This document shows, piece by piece, positions 13,466 to 43,483 of a stretch of 64,000 nt of DNA. Made by a program: the position numbers and the translations under genes. Source of the stretch: Barthelona sp. PCE (taxonomy: Eukaryota); assembly GCA_040285745.1 (NCBI GenBank), contig JAUFOR010000002.1, positions 1,736,001 to 1,800,000 on the forward strand, in the 5' to 3' direction. Numbering within the stretch: the first letter of the stretch is position 1; each line of letters begins with the position of its first letter. Under the pieces are notes generated by a model that saw only the letters and a program-made list of their open reading frames with translations, did not search any database and was not told the DNA's origin.

Positions 13466-14410
13466 TCAAAGAGTGACTGGTTTTAGTTGAAGGTACTCAA
13501 AATCATCGAATTTTAGAGTTCTCTTTTCATTTGCAATTTCACCAGAATTTTCTTTGAATACTTCATATTCAATTTCATCAGCATCATCCTGCACATCACC
13601 GGGAAAAATGCAAAAACAACCATCTCCACCAAGTAGAACAGGTGTTCTGTAACTAATGCCAAAGTAAATTTTCGAAATCAGTTCTGGACCGTTCATTGAT
13701 AGTTTATATACACAGTTGCCCAACAAAAAAAGATCTTCTGCAACGAAATACCATTTGCTTTCACTTTCATAATCAGTTAAAGTCCATTGAGTTGCTTCTT
13801 TGGTATTAGGATCAATAAAATTAATAATAAATACATCTGTGAGAATGTAAAAACTCCATGATGGATCGAACATATTGACACAAATAACCTCACTATCATC
13901 ATCAGAAACATTCAAGGAATAAATCTCTTTGCATTTATCAAGAACATCAAAGACCTTGTAATAATGCCCAGTCATGACGTGGGCCCACATTCGACTGCCA
14001 TCATGTGAAGGTGCCAAACAGGCTCCACTGTAACAATCATTATAACGTTCATTACAAATAACCTCCTTACCGTTAATATGAACAGTGAATCCCCCATTTG
14101 ACATGGATGTAGAAAGAATATGTCCCTTTTTATAGTCCATAATTTGTATGTTATCATGCACCATAGATTGAATGCTTTCAACGTTGCCCTCCTCATTAAA
14201 ACTAATTAGTTGGGTGATATTGTCTTTGTTTTTGACAGAGCACACTAGGTCATCCATCCAAAATTCATGAAACATACCTAAACCAGTTGCAATTTCAACA
14301 GCATTATCGCTTCTTAAATCAAAATAACGCTTACCAACTATTAACCATCCATTTCTTTCAAATATCATTTGTGTCATATCTTGAAAAGGTAAATAATTAT
14401 TCAACAGCAT
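13466..14410 (-). CDS. Hypothetical protein, possibly beta-propeller-like; start uncertain (alternative ATG at 14377)
   Basis: 314-aa ORF rich in short beta-strand-like segments, no recognised motif; first ATG lies 5 nt after the RPT5 stop. Confidence 0.55.
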   Translation of the reverse strand: MLLNNYLPFQDMTQMIFERNGWLIVGKRYFDLRSDNAVEIATGLGMFHEFWMDDLVCSVKNKDNITQLISFNEEGNVESIQSMVHDNIQIMDYKKGHILSTSMSNGGFTVHINGKEVICNERYNDCYSGACLAPSHDGSRMWAHVMTGHYYKVFDVLDKCKEIYSLNVSDDDSEVICVNMFDPSWSFYILTDVFIINFIDPNTKEATQWTLTDYESESKWYFVAEDLFLLGNCVYKLSMNGPELISKIYFGISYRTPVLLGGDGCFCIFPGDVQDDADEIEYEVFKENSGEIANEKRTLKFDDFEYLQLKPVTL

Positions 14411-22135: not shown

Positions 22136-23188
22136 TTAGTGATGGTATGTTCCAACTATGGACATTTCTGAAGCTTGAGATTTTCTAGGCGGCTCTGTTG
22201 TTCGTCTTCGACCCAGTGGTGTAAAAGTGTCCAATTGCCGTGTTGTTTGTCGTTGTTGACTCTGTAGAGAAGCAGCTGTTGCTGATACAGACACCATACC
22301 GCTTTCCATTTGCATTAACTGACGATTATCACCTTCTGACATATAAAATGCAACATCAAATTCGTCTTTTTGACCTATGCCAAAAAGACGCGGTGCAATC
22401 TCAGTCACACCTCTTCCGCATTTAAAGCAAAAGCCTTCACACATGTCCACCATGGAGAAGTATATTGTTCGGATCTCACTATAGTTTAACCAGAAGCACA
22501 AACCCTCAGCCCCTGTCAAGGTGCACTCGGAAATATCAGGAGAGTTGAAAAGGATGGATGTTCTCAACGTCAGCGGTAGCGCTGTATCTTCTGCTGTTGT
22601 TTCAACGTTTCCGCTGACAGGTGCACGACAATAAAACTCAATGGAATTATTCTTGAATGTGAGCGTAATACTGGCGATGAGGTTACGACCTGAACTCAAT
22701 ACAGGAGAAAAAGTCTCAATAATTTGACCAAAAACTGCATTCGTCAAAAAAAATTCATGTGAAAAATCATTAAACACTGGAGGTAAAGCTACATCAAAAG
22801 TGGTTTGTGGCACTATAATGGATCTGACGATTCCGTTCATCTCACCACCATACTGTAGTTCCAAAGTCAAATCCTCATCATTCACATTCAACTGAAGCTC
22901 TTCTATCGATTGTTGATGTACTAGAGCACTTCTAAATAAGTCTGGCGTAACTGAGATGATACGTTCATTACCAGTATTCTCAAAATAGTCAAAAAAAACA
23001 GCAGGAAATGCAATCTTTGCTGTTAACTTACATTGCTGAAAGTTTGGAAAATAAAAAAAGAATAATAGGCCGCTATCTGTTACATTGATGTAGAATACGT
23101 CACTTTGAAAGCGATATGAACGTCTTAAAAAATCTACAAAACGTTCTAACGAACTAAAAGCACCACTTTTGGCAACAGTTAGCTTCAT
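22136..23188 (-). CDS. RAD9-like 9-1-1 checkpoint clamp subunit (PCNA fold)
   Basis: N-terminus MKLTV...FYINVTDSGL...IAFPAVFFDYF parallels Rad9 (LYLEPLEDGL...FLFAPLFFQQY); ~290-aa clamp-sized domain plus disordered S/T/Q tail. Confidence 0.6.
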   Translation of the reverse strand: MKLTVAKSGAFSSLERFVDFLRRSYRFQSDVFYINVTDSGLLFFFYFPNFQQCKLTAKIAFPAVFFDYFENTGNERIISVTPDLFRSALVHQQSIEELQLNVNDEDLTLELQYGGEMNGIVRSIIVPQTTFDVALPPVFNDFSHEFFLTNAVFGQIIETFSPVLSSGRNLIASITLTFKNNSIEFYCRAPVSGNVETTAEDTALPLTLRTSILFNSPDISECTLTGAEGLCFWLNYSEIRTIYFSMVDMCEGFCFKCGRGVTEIAPRLFGIGQKDEFDVAFYMSEGDNRQLMQMESGMVSVSATAASLQSQQRQTTRQLDTFTPLGRRRTTEPPRKSQASEMSIVGTYHH

Positions 23189-25943: not shown

Positions 25944-26216
25944 TTACAATTTACCTTCATTCTTCATACGCATGACCTTAAAACCGCCCCACATCGCAAA
26001 AAAGAATAGAATAACATTGACAAAAAATAAAAAAATCATCTTCTTAATTCCAGAAGGTAAATCCTTCCATCTGCGAATTTGGGGTACTTCGTCTTTCTTC
26101 TCAATATCTTCAGTTGATTCTTGCTCTTCTTGAGCAGATTCAGAGTCAACTACCTCTTGAAGTTGTTCAATAGGCTCCTCGACTGTCTCAGTTGGGGTGT
26201 TTTCGTTGTCTAACAT
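25944..26216 (-). CDS. Small acidic tail-anchored membrane protein (90 aa)
   Basis: ATG at 26216 (MLDNENT); acidic N-terminus, one TM (MIFLFFVNVILFFFAMWGG), short basic tail. Confidence 0.6.
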   Translation of the reverse strand: MLDNENTPTETVEEPIEQLQEVVDSESAQEEQESTEDIEKKDEVPQIRRWKDLPSGIKKMIFLFFVNVILFFFAMWGGFKVMRMKNEGKL

Positions 26217-26414
26217 CTTTTTAAATATGATAAAACTATTTGAAAAGGGTATAAAAAACCTGACAATTAAAGTTGATGAAATAATGATTCTATCTTGATT
26301 AATCACTTTTATAATACCTCATCTCGCATTGACAATATAAATATGAGCTTTACAAAGTAGTGTCAGAGTTTATTAACTCATATATTCAAAATTCTTTCCA
26401 CTTTATTAACAAAA

Positions 26415-28880
26415 TTATTCCAAATCTTCATCAAATAACATAACTGAACTCAGCCTGTGTAACTTTGGTTCTTTTAAACTGGAACCTTTAATAATGTTAT
26501 CAAATACATCATTAAGAGAAGTTTCACTGACTCCCCAATTTTGAATGTTGAGTACATCTGCGCTTTTCAGGAATAAATCAAGGACTTCAGCTGAATCAAT
26601 GTCAGCTGAAGGTACAATAAAGGTATCAACAGTGGAAATTGTATTTTGATAATTACGAGTGGGTATTGTTTCATCTAAGAAACGATTGATATCTTCAGAT
26701 TTTGTACTAGCACGATCAATGAAAATATTGTATCCGTTACCATAACGTGCTTGAAGTTCTGGTTCAGAACCAATAGCCTCGATACGACCTTCATTCATAA
26801 CAACAATCTTTGTAGCTAGAGCACTTGCCTCTGACATAGATGATGTGGCAAAAATAACAACCTTTTCAGTTAAGGAACTGAGAATACCATGCAATTCATT
26901 GACTGATTGCGGATCGAGACCAGTACTGGGACTGTCAACAATGATAATCTGGTTTTGTTCACGAGTCAGAATACCGATAGCAACACCAACGACACAACGA
27001 CGCTTCATACCACCAGAGAAACGACCAACAAGACGATCCTTAAACTCCCAAAGAGATACTCTCTTAAGAATCATTTCAGCATTACGCTTCAACTCTTCAC
27101 CAACAAGACCTTTGAGACGACCAATGTATAACATATGTTCATAAGCAGATAACTTATCCCAATATGTTGACATCTGAGGGGCATAACCAACCATAGCAGC
27201 GATTTTATCCTTATTTTTTGAAAGCAACATGTTGCCAACGTTAACCTCGCCAGCGGTTGTGTCGTAACGACCTGCAAGAAGATTTAGAAGAACTGATTTG
27301 CCGGCTTCAGCCATTCCCAATAAACCGATACTATCACCCTTATTCATTGTGAATGAAGCATTTGCAACGACATTTCCACCACCAAAGTTCTTGGTGACAC
27401 CAATAACCTTAATAAAATCATTATTATTTGCATCAACAGCACGTTTACCATCCACTAAAACACCTACATCATCAAGGGAAGAAGAAGTAATAATATTTTC
27501 AGGGACAAAATGCTTCTTACCACCACGAATGAAGAATAACCAATTCTTATAGTAAGAAGAACGGGGAGTTAAAACCAGTTCAAGATATTGACCAACAAAC
27601 CAAAATATAACACCAGTAACTAACCAACTAATTAAAATATAAGGCAAAGGTGAGAAAGAAGTATCAAATACATCCTTAAAAAAGATCGTTCGATACTCTG
27701 GCAAACTGTAATAATTAAACATTGATACAAAATGTGCAAGACCGAAGAACGGGAATACATACATGTAGAAAGGGAACTCACTGACAGGAGTGAGTGGACT
27801 AATTTTGGCAGCACTTAGAATAAGATTTGAAAATGAACCAAATATGTATGCAATAATGAATCCTGTTAATGCAGCATAACGAGCAGTTTTAAGTAAAGGA
27901 GCAACCATATGTGATTGTGCTATGAGTGAAATAGACCAACATAGCATTATAGTCCATGTAGCACCAGCTGAATTTTGTTTAAAGAAGGGGAAATCAAGGA
28001 ATGTTGCTGCAAAAACAAAAATAGCCATCATAATCATAAAGATACACAGTTCAAACAGATATGTACCAATCATTTTGGGGAATTTACGCATACCATTAGA
28101 AGTTGCCAACATATCAAGTCCCTTTTCTTTTTCATAAGCAGCAAGTGATAAGAAAACTGGAATGGGAAGATACATTAGCATACCAAAGAACTGAACAAGA
28201 ACAAACGAAGAGATATCCATTCCAGACCGTACTTCTTCGGTGGGTAAATCACGAATAGAACGAGTTGAATTGTCAAAACCACCAACAGAATCAAGAATTG
28301 CTGAAGAAATCTGTGACAAACCTGCATTATCATAAATTGGTTTTAAAAAGCGTCTTGCTGATCCATTAGTCATAACAACAACATCCATATCATATACTTG
28401 ACCACTAATACTAACGTTATCGAATCCAAAGGCCCATGTAGCTTCGAGAGATGAATCTCCCCATGCAGTGCCGTAAATATAACTCTTCAAATCTAATGAT
28501 GATGCATGTGACTCAAAAGTTGGCAAAGATGCAGGTCCAACGACCCAATGATAATATTTAGCAAGAACACCTGATGAGGTAGCGATAAGAGGACCAAGTG
28601 AACCCAGAAGGTTGGACTCATCTGCATAGTAAACCTTATTAAAAGGAATATAATTGGCAGAAAAAATTTCCGGTGTCGGAATAGCGGCAATTGTTGATGT
28701 CATGTTCGGGAGACCATCAACTAGCATCTGCAACAAAACCATTAGTAACAATAAAATGACACTAGTAGAAACTAAACAAATATTGAGACCAATTGACCTT
28801 TTCTGGTAATGAAAGTTCTTTAAGAACTCTGCTTTAAACTGGGACAATCCAGATATCTTCTTTCCCTTCTTTTTATCCAT
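26415..28880 (-). CDS. ABCA-subfamily half transporter (TMD-NBD) with degenerate Walker A/B and H-switch
   Basis: TM1, extracellular domain, YEKEKG, further TMs; NBD with GMAEAGKS, YAPQ, FSGGMKRR, IIVDSPSTGLDP, FATSSMSEA, LQARYGNGY, ETSLNDVF. Confidence 0.9.
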   Translation of the reverse strand: MDKKKGKKISGLSQFKAEFLKNFHYQKRSIGLNICLVSTSVILLLLMVLLQMLVDGLPNMTSTIAAIPTPEIFSANYIPFNKVYYADESNLLGSLGPLIATSSGVLAKYYHWVVGPASLPTFESHASSLDLKSYIYGTAWGDSSLEATWAFGFDNVSISGQVYDMDVVVMTNGSARRFLKPIYDNAGLSQISSAILDSVGGFDNSTRSIRDLPTEEVRSGMDISSFVLVQFFGMLMYLPIPVFLSLAAYEKEKGLDMLATSNGMRKFPKMIGTYLFELCIFMIMMAIFVFAATFLDFPFFKQNSAGATWTIMLCWSISLIAQSHMVAPLLKTARYAALTGFIIAYIFGSFSNLILSAAKISPLTPVSEFPFYMYVFPFFGLAHFVSMFNYYSLPEYRTIFFKDVFDTSFSPLPYILISWLVTGVIFWFVGQYLELVLTPRSSYYKNWLFFIRGGKKHFVPENIITSSSLDDVGVLVDGKRAVDANNNDFIKVIGVTKNFGGGNVVANASFTMNKGDSIGLLGMAEAGKSVLLNLLAGRYDTTAGEVNVGNMLLSKNKDKIAAMVGYAPQMSTYWDKLSAYEHMLYIGRLKGLVGEELKRNAEMILKRVSLWEFKDRLVGRFSGGMKRRCVVGVAIGILTREQNQIIIVDSPSTGLDPQSVNELHGILSSLTEKVVIFATSSMSEASALATKIVVMNEGRIEAIGSEPELQARYGNGYNIFIDRASTKSEDINRFLDETIPTRNYQNTISTVDTFIVPSADIDSAEVLDLFLKSADVLNIQNWGVSETSLNDVFDNIIKGSSLKEPKLHRLSSVMLFDEDLE

Positions 28881-29147
28881 AGTAAAAAAGTAAAAAAGCT
28901 AAAATCAACTCTTGAAGCTGAAACCGATAAAATCACCGAATAAAATCACTCAATGAAGAATAATCGTGCTATTCAGCACAAATAAATTTGAATTTGCAAG
29001 GGTCCAAATTCAATCTCAGGTCCTAAACTGTCAAACACTAGATTTTTCCGGACTATAAGGTAATCTGTTCAATTATAAGACCGATTGTGGTAAAAAATTC
29101 TCTAAAAAACATACAAAAGCAGTGCTTTCCATTTTCTTACTTCTAAA
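28881..29147. promoter_or_regulatory. Probable bidirectional promoter between the two ABCA genes, with a central inverted repeat (ttgaatttg-N8-caaattcaa, 28988-29013)
   Basis: 267-bp gap between two divergent ATGs; perfect 9-bp arms near the midpoint; also ataaaatcac x2 (28927, 28940). Confidence 0.5.
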
Positions 29148-31670
29148 ATGTTTTTCAAACACTTTATAGGTCTGCAGAAGAAAGGCTTCAGGCTTTTGCG
29201 CCGCAATGTCGCAATGCTTGCAGTCCAAATTCTTATTCCAATTGGTTTCATTGCTCTTATGATTCTGCTCGATTCTATCGTTATGTCTTCAGATAATTCT
29301 GGTAGATTCAAAGAATTACCGAACCCTATTGCAGAGCCAGTCAACAACATTCCTCTTTGTTACACACATCATGGTGCATGTTATACACTCGCTTATGTTC
29401 CTAATTCAACTTTTGTCAAGTCCATCATTGATGAACTCCGTGTGCTAAACGACCCTGAAATCCCAGCGAACCAAACAATTGGTTTTGCCACCATAACTGA
29501 TTATGATGATTATGTAAGTGCAAACAAAAACACCACACAAGGTGGTTATATTTTTGATTTCGATGAAACAGTAACTGACATAGGTACTCTTACTAACTTT
29601 TCATACACCGTATCACGTAATGCTTCAGCATTCTCATGCGCATTAGGTGATCAATATTGTCAAGTTGATGATGATAGAGATCTGATCAGACCAATGTTCA
29701 TGATGATGGACAAGGCTGCCGCAAAGGTAGCCGGTGGTGATATGGATAATGTAGCATTAAGTATGAGTGATATGCCCCGTCCTCGTGTTTTGAAAGCAGA
29801 TATGATATCCCTCTTTGGTTCGACGTTCATCGGTGCAACACTGTTCCTCACTTCTTTCTTAACATCTATGGTTACTGTCATCAATGATAAACCGCTTAAG
29901 GAAGCTCTTGAACTCAATGGTGCTAATTCTGCTGCTTTATGGATGCAGTACATGTTCCCACAGTGGGTTGGGTCGCTGATCTCTAACACCGTTTTCTGGT
30001 TGGTTGGACGTTATATTGCAAAATTCCCCTTCTTCACCAATGACAGTCAAGGTTCTGTCACTTATGTAACTTTCTTCTTGGCTTCTATCTCTTTAAATGC
30101 CTTTGCGCTATTCCTTTCTTTATTACTATCAAGTCCACGTTCAGCTTCTCTGTTTTCCTTTGGCCTGTTCGTTATGTTCTATTTGTTGGATGCAGTCATT
30201 AACATGGTTGTCTTTCCTAGTGCTCATGTTGACAGTGATTACGCCTTTTATGCAACATTATTCACGTTCCTTCCGCAATCAGTTGTTGATTTAGCGCTCG
30301 ATCAGCTTGCTGACACTGCTACATTTGTTGAAGGACGCGGAATCACATGGGATACACTCAACACTTATCTGGGTGCTAAACCTTATCAAGTTGGTGACTG
30401 TTTACTTCTCATGATCCGTAACACATTTATTTATCTGGCGCTTTTGTGGTATTTCTCACAAATCATTGGTACTGGTATCAAGAAGAAGTGGCATTTCCCC
30501 TTCACATTCTGGATGAGACCTTCTGTCACTACAGTTGATAATATTCGTCTGCAAAGCAATGTTGATGATGATGTGCGTGAAGTGGGTGAGAAAATTTTTG
30601 CATCAACGATCAAAGATCTTGTTGTGGATAATGCAATTGTAACTAAGAATTTAACAAAACGCTTTGGTAACTTTACCGCTGTTGACAATGTTTCAATTCT
30701 CGCAAAGAAGGACACTTGCTTTGGTTTACTTGGTGTCAATGGTGCTGGAAAAACAACTTGTATCAACTGTCTAATCGGCTCTTTGAAAACTTCTGATGGT
30801 GTTTCTTATGTTAACGGTTACAACGTTGCAAAAGATCCTATGAAACTTCGTCGTTCAATAGGAATCTGCCCACAATACGAAATCTTATGGGATCTATTGA
30901 CAGTTGAAGAACATATTGAACTTTTCTGTTATATTCGCGGTATGGATAAGACTAAATTCAATGATGAAGTTGATCGTATCCTTGATTCCGTGTCTCTCCC
31001 TGGTATGGGTAAGAAGCAGGTTGCACTATTAAGCGCCAGTAATCGACGTAAGGTTGCTATTGGTCTCAGTCTTGTCAACTCTCCCAGTATGATTTTCCTT
31101 GATGAACCTACAACAGGTTTAAGTAATTTATCTGCTATATGGAACGTCATCCTTCGTATTAAGGAACAGAAGAATACAACAATCCTTCTTACTTCACATA
31201 ATATGGAAGAAGTTACTTTCCTTGCTGATGAAGTAGCTATTATGGCAAAAGGACAAGTTAGTGCCTTCGGATCTGTACTTCGTCTTCGTACCAAATTTGG
31301 TGGTGGCTATAGTCTGTCTATTACTCTAACTTCTGCTGCTGTTGAAGAACAATTAAAAGCTTATTTAGCGGAATATGTTGAATTTTCTGTTGCAAAATCT
31401 AGCTCAAATACATTACTACTTCAAATCGATAACAAATTTGCAAACAAGCTCCCTGATGCCATTCGTGCTCTTGAAAGTGACCATGCAAAGGAAATGGGTG
31501 TAACAAATGTTTCTTTCAGCCTTTCAACATTGGAAGATGCCTTCTTAAACCTTGCACAGATGTATAACCTGGATATATCAGAAGAAAATGATGAAAAAGA
31601 GGAAAATCAATTAACAGTTCAAGACACACAGAAAAATCTTGAAATTCAATTAGAAGACCCAACCAGCTAA
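29148..31670 (+). CDS. ABCA-subfamily half transporter (TMD-NBD) with canonical Walker motifs and degenerate signature
   Basis: FTAVDNVS, FGLLGVNGAGKTT, IGICPQ, LSASNRRK, IFLDEPTTGLS, LTSHNMEE, LRTKFGGGY, STLEDAFL. Confidence 0.92.
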   Translation: MFFKHFIGLQKKGFRLLRRNVAMLAVQILIPIGFIALMILLDSIVMSSDNSGRFKELPNPIAEPVNNIPLCYTHHGACYTLAYVPNSTFVKSIIDELRVLNDPEIPANQTIGFATITDYDDYVSANKNTTQGGYIFDFDETVTDIGTLTNFSYTVSRNASAFSCALGDQYCQVDDDRDLIRPMFMMMDKAAAKVAGGDMDNVALSMSDMPRPRVLKADMISLFGSTFIGATLFLTSFLTSMVTVINDKPLKEALELNGANSAALWMQYMFPQWVGSLISNTVFWLVGRYIAKFPFFTNDSQGSVTYVTFFLASISLNAFALFLSLLLSSPRSASLFSFGLFVMFYLLDAVINMVVFPSAHVDSDYAFYATLFTFLPQSVVDLALDQLADTATFVEGRGITWDTLNTYLGAKPYQVGDCLLLMIRNTFIYLALLWYFSQIIGTGIKKKWHFPFTFWMRPSVTTVDNIRLQSNVDDDVREVGEKIFASTIKDLVVDNAIVTKNLTKRFGNFTAVDNVSILAKKDTCFGLLGVNGAGKTTCINCLIGSLKTSDGVSYVNGYNVAKDPMKLRRSIGICPQYEILWDLLTVEEHIELFCYIRGMDKTKFNDEVDRILDSVSLPGMGKKQVALLSASNRRKVAIGLSLVNSPSMIFLDEPTTGLSNLSAIWNVILRIKEQKNTTILLTSHNMEEVTFLADEVAIMAKGQVSAFGSVLRLRTKFGGGYSLSITLTSAAVEEQLKAYLAEYVEFSVAKSSSNTLLLQIDNKFANKLPDAIRALESDHAKEMGVTNVSFSLSTLEDAFLNLAQMYNLDISEENDEKEENQLTVQDTQKNLEIQLEDPTS

Positions 31671-31726: not shown

Positions 31727-32956
31727 TTAATAAAAATCAAAAGATTGATCACGTTTTGAAGCAACCTTTTTGTATGCCTCTTCAAAATCTTTACGCAACA
31801 CAATATATCTGTTATTTCGAACTGCTAACATACCAGCTTCCTGACAAATACTATGAATATCCGCACCTGTTAACTTTTCAGGACGTTTAACATATGAATC
31901 AAGATCGATATCTGCTGATAAATTCATTTTTTGTGAACAAACCTGGAAAATAAGACGCTTCTGTCTACGATCAGGGAGAGGGAATTCTATCTTTCTATCA
32001 AGTCTTCCAGGACGTAAAATTGCAGGATCAAGTATTTCAGGACGATTAGTGGCCATGATAACCTTAACATCAGTATTCTTCACGAAACCATCCATTTGAT
32101 TTAAAAGCTCAATAAGGATACGTTGCACCTCACGGTCGGCACCAGCACTGGAGTCGAAACGTTTGGAAGCAATAGCATCGCATTCGTCAATAAAGACAAT
32201 ACAAGGCTGATTCTCTCGTGCAAGCTTAAAAACATCACGGACCATACGTGCACCCTCACCTAAATATTTCTTCACAAACTCTGAGCCAACAACACGAATA
32301 AATGAAGCCTCAGTGTGATGTGCTACAGCCTGGGCCAACATTGTCTTGCCACAACCAGGAGGACCAAACAGTAGAACACCACGTGGAGGATCAATGCCAA
32401 TCTGTTCATACAGGCCGCTGTGCGTCAGAGGCAGCTCCACAGATTCTCTGACTTCCTGCTTCTGCGTATCAAGCCCACCAATGTCTGCGTATGAAATCTT
32501 GGGACGATCCTGCAGTAATCTAACCTGTGTACCAGTCTCGTTGGGCAACACACGAACAATTGAGTGTGCAACCTTGTGCATAGCGACCGAACAAGTTGGT
32601 GTGAGCTTCTCGCGATCTAGAGTTGACAAAACACGGACCATTTCGTGACCGTCACCTGATCCACCGTGCGAAATAATCGCGTGCTGGTCATCAACCATCT
32701 CGAAATATTGTCCAATAGACAGAGGTACAGCCTTAATTCTGTCAACCTCTTGTGTTGCTCGGAACAACTCTCTTCTCAGTGCTAACTCCTCGTTTTTAAC
32801 GTAGTTGATCTGAATCTTATAGAAATCAAGCTCTCTCTCCAGCTTTTTGACTCTTAAGAAAAGATCTTTCTCAATAACTTCTTCAATATGGATTTCCTCT
32901 TCCTTAGTGGCTTCCTCTTCCTCTTTGGGCCTGAAATCAATTCCAATAGCCTCCAT
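31727..32956 (-). CDS. RPT3: 26S proteasome AAA-ATPase subunit 6B (Rpt3/PSMC4)
   Basis: ATG at 32956 gives MEAIGI (cf. MEEIGI); [86 protein letters not shown]. Confidence 0.96.
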
Positions 32957-33224
32957 AAATACTTCTGTAGACAAAAAAGGTAATGATAATGTATAACACT
33001 GTAATGAATAACATCATATGGTGCAATGGGGGGCACTATGCAGCTTATCCATACCAAACGAACTGAAAACTCAAAATCCCTCTGATAAATACATTTACTA
33101 GAAAGTATGGATTACAAATTGTTATTTTAATTGATGATATGGGTTGCTGAATGCGCTGCATTAAATAATTTGCTTGAGAGGTACATACAAATGAAAATTT
33201 TTCGTTTTTGTAAACTTTACTTTT

Positions 33225-34065: not shown

Positions 34066-35919
34066 CTATATCTTCAATAAATCCTCATCAAGCAAGTCTT
34101 CATCAAGCAAATCCTCGTCCAAGTCGCTTGAAGAACTTATGTCATCATCACTTTTGATTGCCGTGTCAACCAAGTACTCTTCCTCCTCCTCTTCGCTTGA
34201 AGCAGACATGTAATCAAAATCTTTCTCTTCTTTAAACATATTAATTTCCGAAGGATCAACCTGCTGCTTTAAATTAGAAGTGCTGTTGGTTTTCGAGAGG
34301 AAAGAGGTCCTAGACAGTGAAGAACGTAATTTCTTCTCTCCTTTAGGATGATTCTTACGGTAATTGATCCAGTACTTTTCAATTACTTTAATTGCCTTTG
34401 ACATCTTTTCTTTCTCACGCTTCTCCTTCTTCTGTTTCCGCTCCAACTCAAATTGACGCTGGAATTCTAGCTCTTTCTCCTTCTCATTGGACTCATTTAT
34501 GAAAGAAAGTCCGCCACTACCATTTGCACTTGGCAAAGTAGATGATGAAGTAGGCAAACGTGACGTCACAGCCAGAGATTGACGTCTTCCACTCATAACC
34601 TTCTCCGATTGCTGACTCCTTGCACTACCCAATGCAGATGACGTTGCATTCTGGGTCTTGAGATTATACACTTCCATTCTCAAGTTCTGGTTCTCCTTTT
34701 TCAGCTCTTGGACAACCTCTTTGATAACTTTCTTTTCTGTTTTTACCTTTTCAAGGTTATTCTTCGCATGACGAAGAGCATTATCACTCTCTTGAACAGA
34801 TTGCAAAAGGGTTGCACGATCATTCTCCAACTGAACGACCTCATTCTTCATAGCCTTATTCCTAGTCTCAAATGTATCCTTCTCCAACTGAGTCCTATTG
34901 AGCTCTTTTCTCATCTCTGAAATTTCACTTTCCATTCGTTGAATAGACTTCTTCTGTCCCTTGATAACGTTACGATGGCTCGTTACTTGTCCGGAAAGAT
35001 CTTCAACCTCCTTCTGGCTCTTATAAAACCGTTCCATGGACATACGCCGTTGTTTCTGATCATTAAAAACTTGAATCTGCTGCTCCTGAACACTGCATCT
35101 CTTCTCCAAAATGTCAAGCTTCCCTTTCAACGTGGCAATATTATCCCTCAACGAATTGCTCTCGTGTCTTTCCTTCCTCAGCAATCCTTTAATCTTGTTC
35201 AATTTCTCATCACTGTTCACAGTTGGGATTTCCAGAGTATCTGGGTTGATACCCTTGGATCTCAGCCTATCTTTAAGCTCGTGCATGTGTAGTTCCACAC
35301 CATCTCTCTCAACACGAACCGCATCGAGTTGATGTTCAAGCGTGGTTATAATAGACTGCTGATCACTGTTACCCAACATCAGCACCTTCTCATCGCTCTT
35401 CTTCAGCTTCTCTCGCAAATCATATACCTGATCTTTAAGGTTACCAATCAAAGAACGCTCTGAACGCATTTGATGAAAATGTGGAGATGAAGAACCTGCA
35501 GAGTTCAACAACTGATCAATTTGCCTGTTTCTGCGTGCCACATCGCTCTCTAAGCGATGTATTTTAGTTTTAGAAAGCTTTAATTCCGTTTCAAGCTGTG
35601 ATTTTCCTTTCTTAAGCTGTTGTACTTTAAAATACAAATCTTCTGCATCATGATGCATATTTTTTGGCACCCGTCGCTTTTTCTTACGCTTAGAACTTGA
35701 TCCTAGTATTGAATTCACTAGTTCTGGATCTAAAACATGTAAATCTGGTGGAAGGTTCGAATACCCGTGTGATTTCCTGGCTCTGTGTGTTGACCGAGCA
35801 GATGTTCTGTGCGAGCTCATTGGTCTATGAGAGTATGATGACGATGGGCGAGAACTAAGCTCTGAATAGTCATTGTAGCTGCTGTTGTACCTAGGCGTGC
35901 TATCAACGGCAATGCTCAT
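34066..35919 (-). CDS. IQCE-like coiled-coil protein with IQ-like motif (ciliary base)
   Basis: AEDLYFKVQQLKK...KTKIHRLESDVARRNRQIDQLL parallels IQCE (EDMYDEIIELKK...RTKLRRLEEENSRKDRQIEQLL); AIKVIEKYWINYRK IQ-like motif; acidic tail. Confidence 0.65.
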   Translation of the reverse strand: MSIAVDSTPRYNSSYNDYSELSSRPSSSYSHRPMSSHRTSARSTHRARKSHGYSNLPPDLHVLDPELVNSILGSSSKRKKKRRVPKNMHHDAEDLYFKVQQLKKGKSQLETELKLSKTKIHRLESDVARRNRQIDQLLNSAGSSSPHFHQMRSERSLIGNLKDQVYDLREKLKKSDEKVLMLGNSDQQSIITTLEHQLDAVRVERDGVELHMHELKDRLRSKGINPDTLEIPTVNSDEKLNKIKGLLRKERHESNSLRDNIATLKGKLDILEKRCSVQEQQIQVFNDQKQRRMSMERFYKSQKEVEDLSGQVTSHRNVIKGQKKSIQRMESEISEMRKELNRTQLEKDTFETRNKAMKNEVVQLENDRATLLQSVQESDNALRHAKNNLEKVKTEKKVIKEVVQELKKENQNLRMEVYNLKTQNATSSALGSARSQQSEKVMSGRRQSLAVTSRLPTSSSTLPSANGSGGLSFINESNEKEKELEFQRQFELERKQKKEKREKEKMSKAIKVIEKYWINYRKNHPKGEKKLRSSLSRTSFLSKTNSTSNLKQQVDPSEINMFKEEKDFDYMSASSEEEEEEYLVDTAIKSDDDISSSSDLDEDLLDEDLLDEDLLKI

Positions 35920-36360
35920 GTCCCCGAATTAATGCAAACAAAAACACACTGTAAGAAAAGGAGAAATTTGTTTAAACATTGTATAGCTCTTTAAATCATA
36001 GATCTGTGGTGTATTTGCTATTTTAGTCATTTTTAGAGCCCATTTAAAAGCTTAAAACTAACAGAACCATCACCTTGTTCAAAAGAGAAAAATGTCTTTT
36101 GCTTCAGCTTTCGCAGTTTTTAGTGGAGCTCATGTGAAAGAATCAAAGTTAAAGACTGTTTTGCTTTAAACTAGATCTGTTCCACCAAACAAATGAACGA
36201 TTTCAAATTCCTCGCTTTTGCACCAACTATTGAAGTTTTTACATGCGTGATATGGATAAATATTTATAGACTATCGTGTTTATGTCTTCAAATAGTTGAA
36301 CAATTTTTTGAATTTAAACGTTATAGTTTTTATCCACCCTATCTGAAAGTAGCAACACAA

Positions 36361-37764
36361 ATGCCCTGTAGTTGTTCTCAGAACTGCACGTGCTCGTGCC
36401 ATCAAGCACCAGCTGTAGCTCCCCAACCTAAGCCACAAGTTCCTTTTAACTCTACAACTTCTGCTCATGACAACTTCCCAGCATATCCCTCCGATATATA
36501 CAAGGCTGCTCTGAGCCCTCATAGAACTCGTCAACCTCGTTCTCATACAAACGACGATAGATCTTTCGAAACAAGTTCACGAACAGCTTATCGTCCAAGT
36601 CCCGTTTCAAAGAGACAAACTGTACAACCTGTTGCTGTTGAAACACGTAAATCTCTTCCATTCACGGCACACACCTCAAAACAGGATGACTTTCCTGTAT
36701 ACGATTCATCTGCTTATAAAGCTGCACTTTCACCATCACGTGAACGTGTTCCTAGGAAGGCAAGAGAGGATAACAGATCTTTTGGATCAACAACACGTGA
36801 TACCTACAAGCAGCACAAGGTTCAACAAAATCAAATCAAGCCCGTTCAACCAAGATCTGCTAAAAGTATTCCATTCACAGCACACACAAGTAAGCAGGAT
36901 GAATTCCCAATGTATTCTACTGATACATACAAGCAAGCTCTTTCTTCACCCAGACAGAATAAGAAACCCAGAACAATTAATGATGATCGTGCTTTTGAAA
37001 CAACAACTCGCGCATCACATAAGAAGCATGATGTTCAGCCTCAAAACAATCGCGCTAAGCCAGTTCCAGTCAACGTTAGACGAAGCATTCCTTTCAATGC
37101 TACAACTAGCAAACAAGATGAGTATAAACAGTATGATACTGAAACATATAAACAGGCACTGAGTCCGCCTAGACAACGCACAGAACGTCGTAGACCGGAT
37201 GATACTAGAGATTTCCACTCAACAAACAGAGACAATTATCAACCTATCTCTGCTGATAAATTCACAAAACGATCCAAGGTCGTTGCACCTAATGTCAAGA
37301 AATCAGTTCCTTTCAAGGCAACAACAAGCAAACAAGATGAATATCAAAAGTATGGAAGCGATATCTATAAACAAGCTCTCAGTCCACCCAGACAACGTAC
37401 AGATCGTCGTAGAACAGAGGATAACAGAGATTTCCATTCCACAAATAGAGATAATTATAAGCCAGTCTCCCCAGATAATTTTACAAAACGCGCCAAGGTG
37501 GTTGCACCAGTTGCCAAAAATTCAGTACCCTTCAAAGCCACTACCAGCAAGCATGATGATTTCCCTACATATTCAGAGAGCGTTTACAAGGATGCACTCA
37601 CACCTGTCCGTACACGTAAGCCCAGAGAAAGGAAGCCTGACAATCGTTCATTTGATACTGATAACAGAGCAGAGTACCATTCGTACGAAAAGTGTTACTG
37701 TTGTTCATGTGGCTACGGTAAGTGTCCTCATGTTAAAATGGTTCCCAGCCCACGTCGTTACTAA
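36361..37764 (+). CDS. SAXO/STOP-like microtubule-stabilising repeat protein
   Basis: Start MPCSCSQNCTCSCH at 36361; six 71-73-aa units, each with two Mn-like motifs (PFxxTTSKQDxF/Y and FxTTxRxxY); Cys clusters at both ends. Confidence 0.7.
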   Translation: MPCSCSQNCTCSCHQAPAVAPQPKPQVPFNSTTSAHDNFPAYPSDIYKAALSPHRTRQPRSHTNDDRSFETSSRTAYRPSPVSKRQTVQPVAVETRKSLPFTAHTSKQDDFPVYDSSAYKAALSPSRERVPRKAREDNRSFGSTTRDTYKQHKVQQNQIKPVQPRSAKSIPFTAHTSKQDEFPMYSTDTYKQALSSPRQNKKPRTINDDRAFETTTRASHKKHDVQPQNNRAKPVPVNVRRSIPFNATTSKQDEYKQYDTETYKQALSPPRQRTERRRPDDTRDFHSTNRDNYQPISADKFTKRSKVVAPNVKKSVPFKATTSKQDEYQKYGSDIYKQALSPPRQRTDRRRTEDNRDFHSTNRDNYKPVSPDNFTKRAKVVAPVAKNSVPFKATTSKHDDFPTYSESVYKDALTPVRTRKPRERKPDNRSFDTDNRAEYHSYEKCYCCSCGYGKCPHVKMVPSPRRY

Positions 37765-37852: not shown

Positions 37853-40800
37853 CTAAACCCCAATATTAGCATGAGAAACTCTCAATAACTTGGCAAGATC
37901 ACGGGCAGATTGTACAGCGTTCCTGTTGAAATTTGGTAAATTTTCCACAAGATAGTTTCGAACACAAAAGGGACGAATAGCATAGACCAAATCATCTGCA
38001 CATAATACACAATTATCAGTTGGATTTGTATAAACATACCCCATTAGACCGCTCGACTTACGTTGCCTGAATAGTCCCATACAAATGATACCTCTATTCA
38101 ATATCATCCACTCAAACATTTCCTTAAAAGTCTTGTCATGGAAATTCTTTGGGGTTTTAAACTGCGTTAATTGTCGTGGGATTTCGTCTCCATAAAACCC
38201 CAGCAGAGTTTCAAAAACTGCAATGATCGGGCTTACAAAGTATCTGCTAGCCAACATAATATCTGCTGACGTGAAAGCTGAAATGGATCCAGCTGAAAAA
38301 ACCTCGCTAAGGAAGAAATCGCCCTCATGACACGGTGGAATAATGTTACAGTTTGAGGCGACAACAACTTGCATCACAATACGGTCAGTTATGTTACCGT
38401 TACATGCCTGTGTAGCTGAAAGAAATCTACTTATTGCACGAGAGTCTTGCAAGAGGTACTCTTCAACCTGTGTAGAAAACCCAATTTGTGTATCACTTAC
38501 CAAAGCACTTCGCCTCATATTAGCCACTCGTTTCTGCGCACTCTTATCGGAAAGAATCAAAACTCGGCGTGCAGTATCGATATCAATGGATTTATAAGTG
38601 TGCTGACCAATGAACGTGCAGTGACGAAAATGTACCTTACCAATTTCCTCCATCAACACAGATTCATGGAAGTGTTCTGGGTCAATATCTGTCGTCAATA
38701 CAACGATTGACAACCGTTTGTAGACAGATCTGATTCGCTTAATGAGCAAAACAACCTCGTCCAATGAATCACCAACTATAATAATGTGATTGTGAAATGT
38801 TGTCCTCCTTCGCTCTGGTTCAGGAGATGTTGGTGATTTGAATAGGTCAAATACGTTCTCAGCCGTGCTAGTGATACCTATACTCCTTATCTCCTCAGTT
38901 GAAGCAATGCTATCCACAATGGGCTTTGTGATGATACGTTCAAATACCTCACCGTTAACTGATGATGGCGACTGTATATTTGCGATTGATTCATATGTCG
39001 GCTCAAACGCCAACTCACAATTCTCAATGTCAAGATTCAAAAAAAGATTGAAAACATTAACTGATTGATGTGCCACAACAATGAGTGCATCTTTTGGCCT
39101 CATTCTGTACAGCAGTGGGTTGATCAAAACTTTCTCGGTTGATACAACCTGTACTCCAAACACAATTATGTTCAGTTTCCGTCTAATATTCGCCGTAAGT
39201 GTTGCAAACGCGTGACCAATGAAACTAGGTGGAATCGGAACACTGATTACGTTGCAGTTGAGGCCATATGTGTACTCAATATCTCGCTTCAACGGAGGTT
39301 CAGAGACACCAGCTCCAACAGCCAGTACATCAATATCTAGACGAGGGACTTGTGCACGATCACTATCCACGTTCTTTAGAGCTGGTGGCATAACGTATGC
39401 TCTAAAAAGGTTGGTGATAAATGCTGGTAAGCCAATCATTCTGGAACACATTGCCATCAAATTAAGCGACAGTGGTTGCAGTGGTAGCACCTCGCTTACG
39501 CCGGCAAACCTCAATATATGAACCGTTCTCTGTAGATGGCACTCTGCGATGACAGGTACATCTTTGTTCAGCCTTCGAATAGCCAGTGCCCTCAGTACAA
39601 CACGTGCATCCTCATCAATGGCCGAAATGGGCTGCTTCTCAGCCAACACAAAGACTGCCTTAACCTCTTTGATACGAGCTCTTCTCAGATCATTCGGGGA
39701 AACCGCTGATCCCCTGAGGATTTCCACTTTCTCTCGGTACATCCTTGAAGTTAGGAAATCTGTGAGCTGTGTATCCGGTTTATATGTGCTTAATACAATG
39801 ATTTTTGGTCTGCTAAAGTCATGAAGCTGCTTTTTCTGCGCATAAAACTGTGAAACGAACTCCATGACACTGTACGATGTTACTGCTCCAGTCAGCAATA
39901 CCAGTTCTTCAGAGTGAGCAAGTTTTGCTTCACCCAAAAACTCTCTTCGTTGCTGTGCAATCTTCCCGAATCGCCTAATAACGATGGGAATAAGAGATAC
40001 ACCTGAAATAATCGTGAAAATCACAACAGCACGACCACCCGAAGTTTCAGGACTGATATCACCGAAACCCACTGTAGAAACCATTACGCTCAGGAAATAT
40101 AGCCCAGAGAAAAAGTTCAAATGATCATTCATGACTGTATCAATGGTTTTGATTTCAAATATGAGATACAACCCTACTGAAAGAATAGCAAAAGTCACAA
40201 CCATCAACAAAGGTAATATCAATGGAGTATATACACCAACCCTCATTAGATGCAAACGATAATGACCTGTCAGTCGGAGAATTCTTCCTATTCTAAAAAA
40301 GAAAAAGCATGTAATATTTTCAGGTGATCCAAAAAATCTAAAAAAAGTTGGTACAATGGATGCTATATCAATTAAGTTGGATGGATTGGTGAAAAAATCA
40401 ATGAATCCATTTGCTATAATCATTTCAAAAACTAGTTCTAAACAGAAAAAAATTGCAAATGCCAATTCAAGTGCCAAAACCCATCTAGGAAGATCAATAT
40501 AGAATGTAGAACATATATAATACACTATTCCAAATAGATTTATACTTATCAAAACCAAATCAAGCTTGAAATTAGTTCGAACCCGATACCATTCATATAA
40601 ACGTTCCCTCATCGAGCTTGCATCAGTTCTTTTAAACACTGATCCTGTATCCTCCACATCATATTCACCCTCTCTCAGCTCAAGGAATGGATTTGCAAAG
40701 TTCTGATTTGGATGAATGGTTCTAATAGCATCAATTTCGATAGATGTACGATTAAGTTCCAGCTGCCGAAGCATTTGTGGTGTCATGGAACGCCCTTCTT

Positions 40801-40927
40801 CAACATTATTCGTTGTAAATTCTTCGTATGACTGTGTGCTGGCTACTCGAAAGCTTTGATCCATAAATTGAACCTCTACTTCCTCTGAAATGTAACCTCC
40901 CTCGTCGAACGGGGTTGATTCGCTCAT
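37853..40927 (-). CDS. Slo/BK-family potassium channel alpha subunit with two RCK domains
   Basis: S1-S6 helices, S4 FRIGRILRL, pore STVGFGDISP, RCK1 (LRGSAVSPNDLRRARI...AVFVLAEK...EDARVVLRALAIR), RCK2, GYVYTNP; first ATG at 40927. Confidence 0.9.
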   Translation of the reverse strand: MSESTPFDEGGYISEEVEVQFMDQSFRVASTQSYEEFTTNNVEEGRSMTPQMLRQLELNRTSIEIDAIRTIHPNQNFANPFLELREGEYDVEDTGSVFKRTDASSMRERLYEWYRVRTNFKLDLVLISINLFGIVYYICSTFYIDLPRWVLALELAFAIFFCLELVFEMIIANGFIDFFTNPSNLIDIASIVPTFFRFFGSPENITCFFFFRIGRILRLTGHYRLHLMRVGVYTPLILPLLMVVTFAILSVGLYLIFEIKTIDTVMNDHLNFFSGLYFLSVMVSTVGFGDISPETSGGRAVVIFTIISGVSLIPIVIRRFGKIAQQRREFLGEAKLAHSEELVLLTGAVTSYSVMEFVSQFYAQKKQLHDFSRPKIIVLSTYKPDTQLTDFLTSRMYREKVEILRGSAVSPNDLRRARIKEVKAVFVLAEKQPISAIDEDARVVLRALAIRRLNKDVPVIAECHLQRTVHILRFAGVSEVLPLQPLSLNLMAMCSRMIGLPAFITNLFRAYVMPPALKNVDSDRAQVPRLDIDVLAVGAGVSEPPLKRDIEYTYGLNCNVISVPIPPSFIGHAFATLTANIRRKLNIIVFGVQVVSTEKVLINPLLYRMRPKDALIVVAHQSVNVFNLFLNLDIENCELAFEPTYESIANIQSPSSVNGEVFERIITKPIVDSIASTEEIRSIGITSTAENVFDLFKSPTSPEPERRRTTFHNHIIIVGDSLDEVVLLIKRIRSVYKRLSIVVLTTDIDPEHFHESVLMEEIGKVHFRHCTFIGQHTYKSIDIDTARRVLILSDKSAQKRVANMRRSALVSDTQIGFSTQVEEYLLQDSRAISRFLSATQACNGNITDRIVMQVVVASNCNIIPPCHEGDFFLSEVFSAGSISAFTSADIMLASRYFVSPIIAVFETLLGFYGDEIPRQLTQFKTPKNFHDKTFKEMFEWMILNRGIICMGLFRQRKSSGLMGYVYTNPTDNCVLCADDLVYAIRPFCVRNYLVENLPNFNRNAVQSARDLAKLLRVSHANIGV

Positions 40928-41214
40928 CAACTAAAACCCAATCAAAAGAATGAGATAAATATTTGAAAACAGCATTGAATTTCTTTCTGGTATTTTGATA
41001 TCTTAGACGTGAAAAAACACTCTATATAATACACAACATCTTTATTTAAACATGTGTAAGTTTAACTCAATGTGCCGGGCTTTTTGTCGAGCTTTAAACA
41101 AATTTTTTCTTCTGAATTATACAATAAAGACAGCTATTGTTTCACCAAAAACAATATTTATAAGTCATTTAAAAAATAGAAACGTGTAATATTTTTCCTA
41201 AACCTATCGTCGCA

Positions 41215-41955
41215 ATGTATTCAATTTCATCGGAAGATGAACCACTGATGGCCGAGTTCCAGGCCGCAATCGCTGAACTTAACACAGAATCACTTCCTCC
41301 ATCCCATAGAGATTTGTTCCAGCAGTTTAATTATATATTAGCAGCTAAGCGCAACATTTCCAAGGCTGTAGATCGTTTAAAGAACAGTATCGAGTTTTTC
41401 AACACCACAAACGTGTTTGGAACTCAAGAAGATGAAGTTGGGGATAGTTTAATGTCTGGTAAGGTAGTTATCCATGGTAAGGACCGTGAAAATAGACCTT
41501 GTGTTGTTATGCGCCTCTGTCGTCATGACAATAGCGTATCAAGTGAAGAAAATTTAAGATTTTTGTGCTATATGGTGACAACCCTTTTTGTTAAACTTAC
41601 AGAGGCTCAATGCTTTGATGCACATCTGATAATAGATGCAAAGGACTTTACACGTCATAACCTTGACTTGGACTTTGTTAAGACTGCACTTGGTATTCTT
41701 CAAGATCATTTTCCTGGTCGAATTTTCCGTTTGCATATAGTTAATGCTAATTTTCTGATCCGTACTGTTTTCAGAGGCCTCAAAATGTTCCTCAACATCC
41801 TGTTAAAGGAAAGAATTGAATTAAGTAAGAGTGCAACAGGAGAATTAGCTCAGTTTTTTGATCCAAGTGAATTATTGGTTAACTTTGAGGGTACAGTCGA
41901 ATTATTTAATGAAACAGGTCATCCAACAGGTTTTGAATTTCGTCACATTGAATAA
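41215..41955 (+). CDS. CRAL-TRIO (Sec14-like) lipid-binding protein
   Basis: HGKDRENRPCVV, LIIDAKDF, LQDHFPGRIFRLHIVNA, ELLVNFEG. Confidence 0.88.
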   Translation: MYSISSEDEPLMAEFQAAIAELNTESLPPSHRDLFQQFNYILAAKRNISKAVDRLKNSIEFFNTTNVFGTQEDEVGDSLMSGKVVIHGKDRENRPCVVMRLCRHDNSVSSEENLRFLCYMVTTLFVKLTEAQCFDAHLIIDAKDFTRHNLDLDFVKTALGILQDHFPGRIFRLHIVNANFLIRTVFRGLKMFLNILLKERIELSKSATGELAQFFDPSELLVNFEGTVELFNETGHPTGFEFRHIE

Positions 41956-41980
41956 AAGTGTTTATTTATCAACATATTAA

Positions 41981-43483
41981 CTATCCCAAAATGTTACATG
42001 TTGCAAACTTAGAATTACTAGTGTTTCTAAAGAGCATATGAAGGACACCGTTAGGGGGACCAAGGAAAGCAATAGCTGCATCAATTAAAAGATAAAACGC
42101 CAGAGATTTGTTCATGACAGTGTGGTTTTTACGTGGAATGTACATCTGGTTCATGATCTTATATCGGTCAATCTTAAACTCAACCCAATTGATGAAGAAT
42201 GCAAACAAAGAAAGAGCAGGAGCAAAGATAATAGCAGAGTATACAATGAACTGTCTGTATATAACCTCTAAAAATTCATCAGCGAGATCAAGTGGTTTGC
42301 CGTCAGATCCCTCCTTACATTTTGCAAGAACAGGTGCCAACAATTCAAGACCATTAAATACTACTAGATCGGTAATCATAAGCGTAGCAATCTGTTTAGC
42401 AATATCGTTGTAATAACAATCACCATTGTAAACAGCATATTTAGCGATATACATTGCTACAACTGTTGATACTTTGTAAGCAAATAATTTAAAAGTATTA
42501 TGAACTTGAAGACCAGTGTATGTCTTATGCTTCTCGAAAAGGGTTAACTTCCTGGTAAATTTCTTACCAAGGAAGTTAACAGTTGAAATGATACCTGAAA
42601 GAACAAAAGAACCAACTGTTGAACCCTGGAAGTAATCTGTTAATTTAAATGACACAATACCGACCAAGAAAATGAGACATGATAATGTGATATAAGCAAC
42701 GATAATTCTGAAGAAACGCTGAATAAAACCAACAGAACGATTTTCTTTGATTTCATCATAAATAGTTCCTTCCAGACTTTCAGATTTCATATCCTTTAAC
42801 TTGACTTTCATTGATCTAAAATAAAGGAAGGGGAATGAAAACCACATAATTGCATTAATAAGAGTAGTTAAACGCCAAATTCCAGCAACACTGGATCCAT
42901 AATGTCCAATTGAGAAGTGACTGACGACACCGTCAACTTCAGCACTAGAATAACCGGGGATGATGTTGATCAACGCTAAAATAAATGAGAGAATATTGGT
43001 AACAGCAATGAAGCGTTCAAATTCAAGCAAAAGTCTGATACCTGTTCCAGCCCATTCACCAATATCCTTAAGAGAAGCATCTTTGTTGAGTTTTGTGTGC
43101 ATAGGACTGTCCTGAGGTAAGCTACCATCAGTGCTGGTATAGTATGGAACACCGCTTTCAGAATATTTGATTTGCATGTTTTGAGGAAGAGTAAACTGAA
43201 CCTGTTGAATGGTTGGTGCCCAAAAATTGAAATGGTGAACCGGTTGACCGTAGGGAACTCCGTTAGCAGCAGGAACGGGGACAGCCATTGGCTGAGGTTG
43301 AACTTGCGCAGGCGGGAATTGCTGCATAGGTTGAGGTTGAGGTTGACCGCCGTAGTTAACACCTTGGTTTGGATTGTATCCCATTGCATAAGGATTATAG
43401 CCAGCATTGTTTGGGACGTTTGGGTTATAGCCACCATTGTTGTGGGGATTGTAACCACCGCCACCGTTTGGTTGCGAGTACAT
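41981..43483 (-). CDS. Transmembrane channel-like (TMC/OSCA-TMEM16 superfamily) protein
   Basis: IGEWAGTGIRLLLEFERFIAVTNILSF (cf. TMC FGSSVxSYFxFLRW), LTLFEKHKT, DLADEFLEVIYRQFIVYSAIIFAP; N-terminal YNP/PQ low-complexity tail. Confidence 0.7.
   Translation of the reverse strand: MYSQPNGGGGYNPHNNGGYNPNVPNNAGYNPYAMGYNPNQGVNYGGQPQPQPMQQFPPAQVQPQPMAVPVPAANGVPYGQPVHHFNFWAPTIQQVQFTLPQNMQIKYSESGVPYYTSTDGSLPQDSPMHTKLNKDASLKDIGEWAGTGIRLLLEFERFIAVTNILSFILALINIIPGYSSAEVDGVVSHFSIGHYGSSVAGIWRLTTLINAIMWFSFPFLYFRSMKVKLKDMKSESLEGTIYDEIKENRSVGFIQRFFRIIVAYITLSCLIFLVGIVSFKLTDYFQGSTVGSFVLSGIISTVNFLGKKFTRKLTLFEKHKTYTGLQVHNTFKLFAYKVSTVVAMYIAKYAVYNGDCYYNDIAKQIATLMITDLVVFNGLELLAPVLAKCKEGSDGKPLDLADEFLEVIYRQFIVYSAIIFAPALSLFAFFINWVEFKIDRYKIMNQMYIPRKNHTVMNKSLAFYLLIDAAIAFLGPPNGVLHMLFRNTSNSKFATCNILG

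Follow-up and report, generated by a model that had tools for sequence, protein, structure and literature searches.

Divergent ABCA-type half-transporter genes with reciprocally degenerate ATP-site motifs in Barthelona sp. PCE suggest an asymmetric heterodimer

The closest described counterparts of the gene pair considered here are in Trichomonas vaginalis, in which 20 of the 34 ABCA half-transporter genes are linked as ten inverted pairs (PMC3378599, 2012). In these pairs, of which TVAG_064700/TVAG_064710 is an example, one member belongs to Group I, with a canonical signature and an N-terminal-like nucleotide-binding domain (NBD), and the other to Group II, with a degenerate signature and a C-terminal-like NBD (PMC3378599). 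Our pair, genes A and B, lies in a window of 64,000 nucleotides from Barthelona sp. PCE (GenBank assembly GCA_040285745.1, contig JAUFOR010000002.1, positions 1,736,001 to 1,800,000, forward strand); all coordinates below count from the first nucleotide of this window. The preliminary description of the locus had taken such a pattern to be undescribed for ABCA half-transporters, a claim that the linked T. vaginalis pairs of PMC3378599 overturn. At the level of titles and abstracts, the literature yielded no biochemically shown ABCA half-transporter heterodimer, the T. vaginalis gene pairs coming closest.

Single-site catalysis has been established experimentally for the heterodimers TAP1/TAP2 and ABCG5/ABCG8, unlike A/B, which is known from sequence; the ABCG5 and ABCG8 genes also lie head-to-head. 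CFTR (ABCC7) carries a His to Ser change at its switch position that matches the one in A. ABCA1, A3, A4 and A7 are medically important lipid pumps, and with both halves in one chain of 1,600-2,300 amino acids (aa), the division of work between ABCA ATP sites is difficult to dissect. Degenerate sites recur across these families: loss of the Walker B glutamate in ABCB2/B3 (TAP1/TAP2) is accompanied by H-loop deviations, as is common; ABCG5/G8 combines signature and Walker A changes; the catalytic glutamate of CFTR is replaced by serine, the same substitution as Asp649-Ser650 of A; and a subset of human ABCAs has one degenerate site (PMC7756269).

A scan for open reading frames (ORFs) showed that the region consists of two intact, intron-free ORFs, divergently transcribed and 267 bp apart, each beginning at the first ATG following a stop. 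Gene A (26415-28880, minus strand) encodes an 821-aa protein with a transmembrane domain (TMD), an NBD that is catalytically degenerate, and an R-like domain. The 840-aa product of gene B (29148-31670, plus strand) has a canonical catalytic side and a degenerate signature and D-loop. A recheck of both ORFs returned the bounds originally reported and found both intact. The two proteins share 22% identity across 764 aligned positions (BLASTP, E 3e-30), and their sequences identify both as ABCA-type half-transporters. The best reading of the pair, to which we give somewhat better than even chances, is that A and B assemble as an asymmetric A/B heterodimer. They would then be two different halves of one ABCA-type transporter (type II/V exporter fold), much like a full-length ABCA split into two genes with a common 267-bp divergent 5' region.

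The case for this heterodimer lies in the distribution of ATPase motifs. Recomputing the positions and checking the alignment register placed every motif of A and B at the coordinates reported earlier. In A (minus strand), Walker A reads GMAEAGKS (27294-27317, residues 522-529): the Lys and Ser are kept and the ABC-typical Asn3 and Gly4 are replaced by Ala and Glu, so that the motif fits the general P-loop pattern GxxxxGK[ST] and is atypical just for the ABC form. Walker B (IIIVDSP, 26928-26948, residues 645-651) keeps Asp649 and has Ser650 for the catalytic Glu, and the H-switch region (ATSSM, 26835-26849, residues 678-682) has Ser680 for His. The signature of A, FSGGM (27006-27020, residues 621-625), is canonical for ABCA halves, and its D-loop, STGLDP (26910-26927, residues 652-657), is intact. 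Motif reading further placed its A-loop at KNF (residues 497-499) and its Q-loop at YAPQ (residues 566-569).

In B (plus strand), Walker A is the canonical GVNGAGKT (30732-30755, residues 529-536), Walker B (MIFLDEP, 31089-31109, residues 648-654) has the catalytic Glu653, and the H-switch (LTSHN, 31188-31202, residues 681-685) has His684; the A-loop is KRF (residues 504-506) and the Q-loop ICPQ (residues 573-576). The signature, LSASN (31029-31043, residues 628-632), has both glycines of SGG substituted, and the D-loop, TTGLSN (31110-31127, residues 655-660), has Ser659 for Asp. Residues of the fold and of nucleotide binding are kept in both proteins, the invariant columns including G522, G527, K528, Q569, S622 and D649.

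These states were compared in a set of 294 NBDs, drawn from A, B, the half-size protein P0004 and the best 149 other matches of an exhaustive HMMER search with A, aligned with MAFFT and cross-checked for register against ABCA3 in alignments to PDB structures. The alignment upheld the reciprocal motif states set out in the preliminary description. Among the 292 other NBDs, the Walker B Asp-Glu is retained in 289 (Glu lost in 3), the switch His in 282 (lost in 10), the signature SGG in 274 (lost in 18) and the D-loop Asp in 291 (lost in 1). Walker A conforms to GxxGxGK[ST] in 284, with alignment gaps accounting for 3 of the 8 misses, and the Q-loop Gln is present in 292/292. Loss of both signature glycines occurs in one other NBD (P0055_NBD2), with P0055_NBD1 and P0136_x2 as near cases. 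None of the 9 other half-size ABCAs in the set departs from the canonical state at any motif; their signature is F/YSGGM, and they are thus compatible with homodimers, unlike A and B.

Composite ATP sites were scored as the catalytic side of one NBD plus the signature side of the other. In an A/B heterodimer, five deviations (Walker A, catalytic Glu and switch His of A; signature glycines and D-loop Asp of B) fall in the site made by the catalytic side of A with the signature and D-loop of B, and none falls in the other. An A/A or B/B dimer would carry defects in both of its sites. Site scoring thus bears out two earlier claims, that neither homodimer has a complete site and that the heterodimer has one consensus and one degenerate site (0 versus 5 deviations).

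Complementarity of this kind might be coincidental, with both proteins drifting under relaxed constraint and neither a classical ATP-driven transporter; the long branches of both NBDs are in keeping with such drift, and searches with A and B found no orthologues showing conserved odd residues. Yet five deviations placed at random over 10 motif slots fill exactly one composite site in only 2 of 252 ways (our own combinatorial estimate, assuming equal slot probabilities), both ORFs are intact over ~2.5 kb each, and the catalytic side of B and the signature side of A are perfect. We consider coincidence very improbable.

Full-length ABCAs give the same scoring a wider frame. Of 110 such proteins, 92 show no deviation, 12 deviate in the NBD1-catalytic/NBD2-signature site only, 2 in the other site only and 4 in both; where deviations are confined to a single site, they never exceed 2. 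The cleanest asymmetric cases, P0085 and P0168 (named ABCA8/9-like), have 2 deviations in one site, an NBD1 His to Gln change and a degenerate NBD2 signature. Two other full-length ABCA-like matches of the search with A, P0055 and P0102, deviate in both sites (4+2 and 2+2); they are perhaps poor gene models or ABCAs without catalytic activity.

In the A/B heterodimer, the hydrolytic site would be built from Walker A, Glu653 and His684 of B together with the FSGGM signature and D-loop Asp of A. The degenerate site, with GMAEAGKS, Asp649-Ser650 and Ser680 from A and LSASN and Ser659 from B, would not hydrolyze ATP and might instead hold nucleotide as a latch. The residues retained in A (A-loop Phe, Walker A Lys and Ser, Q-loop Gln, Walker B Asp) make binding of nucleotide without hydrolysis possible, and by analogy with other asymmetric ABC proteins the site may act in this way. 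The earlier proposal of an obligate heterodimer with one active site keeps its structural logic; its obligate character we infer, as we do pairing (from adjacency and a weak co-fold), single-site catalysis and a lipid substrate.

We then asked where the two halves sit among ABCA proteins. A whole-half tree of 59 rows (IQ-TREE, mixture model, quick search) combined A and B with 9 half-size proteins and with both halves, N- and C-terminal, of 24 full-length matches, chosen from the 110 as every fourth of those 1500-2400 aa long. A joins P0112 and P0132 (starred support 99), half-size skoliomonad proteins named Eukaryota sp. TZLM3-RCL and GEM-RC1, inside the side of the tree that holds half-size proteins and C-terminal halves. 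The accessions of the two skoliomonad proteins are KAL0221537 (locus tag RCL1_001391) and KAL0235765 (GEMRC1_002347). B groups with P0004 and the N-terminal halves of all 24 full-length proteins (starred support 98). A 33-row tree (LG+G4), in which 11 of the 24 full-length proteins were used (three with long branches dropped, then every second taken), repeats both placements with starred supports of 99 each. The TMD-only tree likewise joins A to the two skoliomonad proteins (96, starred) inside a half/C-type set (95, starred) and B to the N-halves (94, unstarred). In phmmer comparisons the TMD of B scores higher against the first-half TMD for 83 of the 110 proteins and against the second-half TMD for 13; that of A scores higher against the second-half TMD for 56 and against the first-half TMD for 28.

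The phylogeny proposed in the preliminary description as a check thus parts A (half/C-type) from B (N-type) in both whole-half and TMD trees. If this typing holds, the two would come from different ancient ABCA half lineages, N-half type for B and half-size/C-half type for A. An N-type with a C-type half is the combination found within one chain of full-length ABCAs, so the phylogeny independently supports pairing. That half-size ABCAs lie close to C-terminal halves has been reported before (PMC4649718). A recent tandem duplication of A and B was also considered and rejected: on the 33-row tree, an A+B clade, a grouping chosen after the first tree was seen, gave an approximately unbiased test p of 0.0021 and a log-likelihood difference of 57.

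Several observations weigh against the heterodimer or the typing of its halves. The N-type/C-type assignment finds no confirmation in NBD-only trees. A FastTree NBD tree, built from 231 of the 294 rows after leaving out 63 from truncated or multi-NBD proteins, puts A in a 111-row set with 108 NBD1 rows (99, starred, with a long-branch warning) and B nearest to NBD2 rows, and an IQ-TREE mixture-model tree of NBD plus R gives a starred placement to neither. End branches in the latter are 3.1 for A and 2.26 for B, against a median of 0.74. The nearest relatives of A, P0112 and P0132, are canonical at all motifs, so the degeneracy of A is lineage-specific. A search of 1.84 billion cluster representatives gave A no close orthologue, the best matches having 24-31% identity and being mostly full-length ABCAs. 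A search with the NBD of B gave 4,277 matches, with no close orthologue among those listed (best 39%); the best 120 are mostly truncated two-NBD ABCAs.

Other searches were similarly sparse. A word-indexed protein search with whole A returned A itself and one bacterial NBD match only, and with whole B it gave 20 matches, of which P0004 (24% identity) is the single real ABCA half. A metagenome scan with A produced 168 pattern matches and confirmed a single locus, L001, at 25% identity over the NBD only. The orientation of A and B means little by itself, since there are 9 minus/plus junctions among the ORFs of the window and divergent neighbours are common there.

A different reading makes B a working homodimer that tolerates its odd signature and D-loop, and its neighbour A either a relic, decaying or non-catalytic, or a protein with a regulatory or scaffolding role. 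The NBD of A is the fastest-evolving row in the tree, its PF00005 score is low and its canonical closest relatives make it look like a derived copy. However, A is an intact 821-codon ORF with all fold-defining invariant residues, and its canonical signature and D-loop are the very parts needed to complete the site of B. A B/B dimer would also bear LSASN and the missing D-loop Asp in both sites, and each of these losses has just one parallel among the 292 other NBDs. On balance we find a B homodimer unlikely.

Structure modeling, another check proposed at the outset, gave weak support for contact between the NBDs of A and B. Co-folding of the two NBD+R segments with 2 ATP and 2 Mg gave an ipSAE of 0.36 (runs 0.36, 0.38 and 0.12), with three controls at 0.00; contacts agree between runs to at least 61%, and partner predicted local distance difference test (pLDDT) values are at least 75. 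Calibration on 78 solved complexes and 108 mismatched pairs saw 51 and 2 of them, respectively, attain the mark; at scores of 0.60 or less, passes came from only 5 of the 78 solved complexes and from all 4 mismatches that passed (of 180). The co-fold was run without alignments of our own. The pass is weak and does not separate a heterodimer from homodimers or choose among family members, and it may reflect the ABC NBD dimers already solved.

Other ABCA paralogues could be the real partners of A or B, or the two could be asymmetric but non-exclusive halves, pairing promiscuously with other members of an expanded family. ABCA families are expanded in other metamonads, T. vaginalis having 34 genes and G. 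lamblia 15 (PMC3378599), and the co-fold does not discriminate among family members. Set against this, the defects are exactly reciprocal between the two neighbours, and the T. vaginalis groups are linked pair by pair (PMC3378599), suggesting that neighbours cooperate. Promiscuous pairing seems to us about as improbable as a B homodimer, and the A/B heterodimer remains the reading that we favor.

Assignment to the ABCA family draws on several searches. Pfam recognizes one ABC_tran domain, PF00005, in each protein (A, E 2e-18, 67.8 bits; B, E 4e-21), and the best PDB matches are ABCA3/4/1/7 for A (E 9e-67 to 6e-48) and ABCA3/1/7/4 for B (E 1e-110 to 1e-78), with non-ABCA ABC families scoring far weaker. 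Atlas models of A and B match plant ABCA half-transporters with TM-scores of 0.81 and 0.80, respectively, in an 852-member, mostly streptophyte cluster of half-size ABCAs, and additionally match Parabasalia ABC clusters. Names were read for 20 among the best 150 of the 148,889 matches of A, and were ABCA-named, uninformative or unnamed. From family membership alone, the substrate of A/B is probably a lipid or lipid-like molecule.

The topology of both proteins fits the ABCA plan of a first transmembrane segment (TM1), a long loop and TM2-6 (PMC3724490, PMC4649718). In A, a Kyte-Doolittle scan placed TM1 at residues 32-50 (28731-28787) and an extracellular loop at approximately residues 51-225 (28206-28730), with no hydrophobic segment between 50 and 226. 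The TM2-TM6 cluster (approximately residues 226-430, 27591-28205) has hydropathy peaks at 226, 275, 337 and 412 and aligns with the TMDs of ABCA3 and ABCA1 in PDB alignments. In B, hydropathy gave TM1 at residues 23-41 (29214-29270), the loop at approximately 42-219 (29271-29804) and the TM2-TM6 cluster at approximately 220-433 (29805-30446), which aligns with the first-half TMD of ABCA3. The loop is therefore ~175 aa in both, the next TM starting at residue 226 in A and 220 in B; ABCA loops typically exceed 100 aa (PMC4649718), and both are shorter than the >250 aa used as a loop screen in PMC3378599. Before TM1, A has EFLKNF, with its FLKN motif on the N-terminal side, and B has GLQKKG; both are near the ABCA xLxxKN motif (PMC3724490) and neither matches it exactly.

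The NBD of A spans residues 493-736 (26673-27404; phmmer envelope, with Pfam covering 506-652) and that of B residues 490-745 (30615-31382; Pfam and phmmer). An R-like domain follows in A at residues 714-785 (26526-26741), where PF23321 R1_ABCA1 matches with E 0.0047 and 17.4 bits, below the 27-bit cutoff; the PDB alignment of A to ABCA3 continues through the R region to residue 795. For B the PDB alignment spans the ABCA3 R region to residue 807, with no Pfam R-domain match at E <=0.01.

The shared 5' intergenic region, bounded by the two ORFs, covers the 267 bp between the start codons (28881-29147). Near its middle lies a 9-nt perfect inverted repeat, TTGAATTTG N8 CAAATTCAA (28988-29013), which could be a regulatory site or chance. 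The repeat scan turned up only short repeats in this region, and their meaning is uncertain.

The window as a whole is very compact eukaryotic sequence, with long uninterrupted ORFs on both strands and short spacers; elsewhere it encodes, among others, proteasomal AAA ATPases, topoisomerase III, a BK-type channel and PRP38. No more than 17 kb separates two genes for proteasome-type AAA ATPases (14416-15702 and 31727-32974, both minus strand), the second lying 56 bp past the stop codon of gene B on the opposite strand. At the other end of the pair, 108 bp downstream of gene A, a 120-aa ORF (25944-26306, minus strand) has an acidic middle and a C-terminal hydrophobic segment; a Pfam search assigned it to no family. 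A cluster of membrane- and lipid-related genes at 37853-43483, ~6-12 kb from the ABCA pair, is annotated as a BK/Slo-type K+ channel (37853-40930, minus), a CRAL/TRIO Sec14-like lipid-binding protein (41215-41955, plus) and an anoctamin/TMEM16-like protein (41981-43483, minus). Further along, a rise in G+C from ~0.36-0.41 to 0.44-0.47 accompanies a single 3,666-aa ORF (45914-56914, minus strand), whose product combines an RCC1-like propeller, TIG/IPT and many teneurin-type EGF repeats. At E 1e-5, Pfam matches are lacking for many window ORFs of 200-630 aa (for example 1785-3677, 4092-6308, 13466-14410, 22136-23188, 34066-35919, 36193-37764 and 60849-62501), and their abundance fits a divergent lineage with few sequenced relatives.

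If the heterodimer is real, natural halves of ~820-840 aa with one dead site would make a convenient model, in which the two chains can be expressed and mutated separately. For annotation, neighbouring ABCA halves would be better labelled as probable partners than as redundant paralogues. The linked N-type/C-type arrangement of ABCA half-genes known from Trichomonas also occurs, by our typing, in another compact eukaryotic genome.

A and B resemble other asymmetric transporters in different respects. Like TAP1/TAP2 and ABCG5/ABCG8, they are two different halves with the deviations gathered in one composite site; TAP1/TAP2 have the ABCB type I fold and ABCG5/ABCG8 the reverse domain order, whereas A and B are ABCA. 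Full-length ABCAs and CFTR are single polypeptides, unlike A/B, and the degeneracy is greater in A/B, with 5 deviations against at most 2 in clean full-length ABCAs. In architecture and fold A and B match the plant half-size ABCAs of the ABCA2-12 type, and A groups with half-size ABCAs of Anaeramoeba, Platysulcus, Rhodelphis, Ceratiomyxa and the two skoliomonads.

Among full-length ABCAs that deviate in one site, 12 of 14 do so in the NBD1-catalytic plus NBD2-signature site, and the dead site of A/B is the opposite one if the N/C typing holds. A dead site opposite to the usual (12 versus 2) points to an independent origin of the A/B asymmetry. A fuller version, in which an independently evolved, extreme ABCA asymmetry has turned the dead site (C-type catalytic side with Glu to Ser, N-type signature) into a non-hydrolytic latch in a split-gene ABCA, we regard as a tentative and rather doubtful proposal.

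The comparison with T. vaginalis is the closest. By description, the pairs there and A/B are alike in being adjacent, inverted TMD-NBD ABCA halves with a TM1-TM2 loop, whose members mimic N- and C-terminal halves and of which one has a canonical and one a degenerate signature (PMC3378599). T. vaginalis and the nearest named relatives of A are all metamonads. The two differ in which member is degenerate: the N-type member, B, has the degenerate signature here, and the C-like Group II has it in T. vaginalis. Unlike Group II as described, the half/C-type A keeps its signature and lacks the Walker A features, catalytic Glu and switch His. The available part of PMC3378599 contains no analysis of the catalytic Glu, H-switch or D-loop of those pairs and does not use the word heterodimer; relative to that account, the motif partition of A/B is sharper and fully reciprocal, covering the catalytic Glu, switch His and D-loop. 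The Barthelona pair is thus an unusually clean case of an arrangement already reported in Trichomonas, and its novelty is modest.

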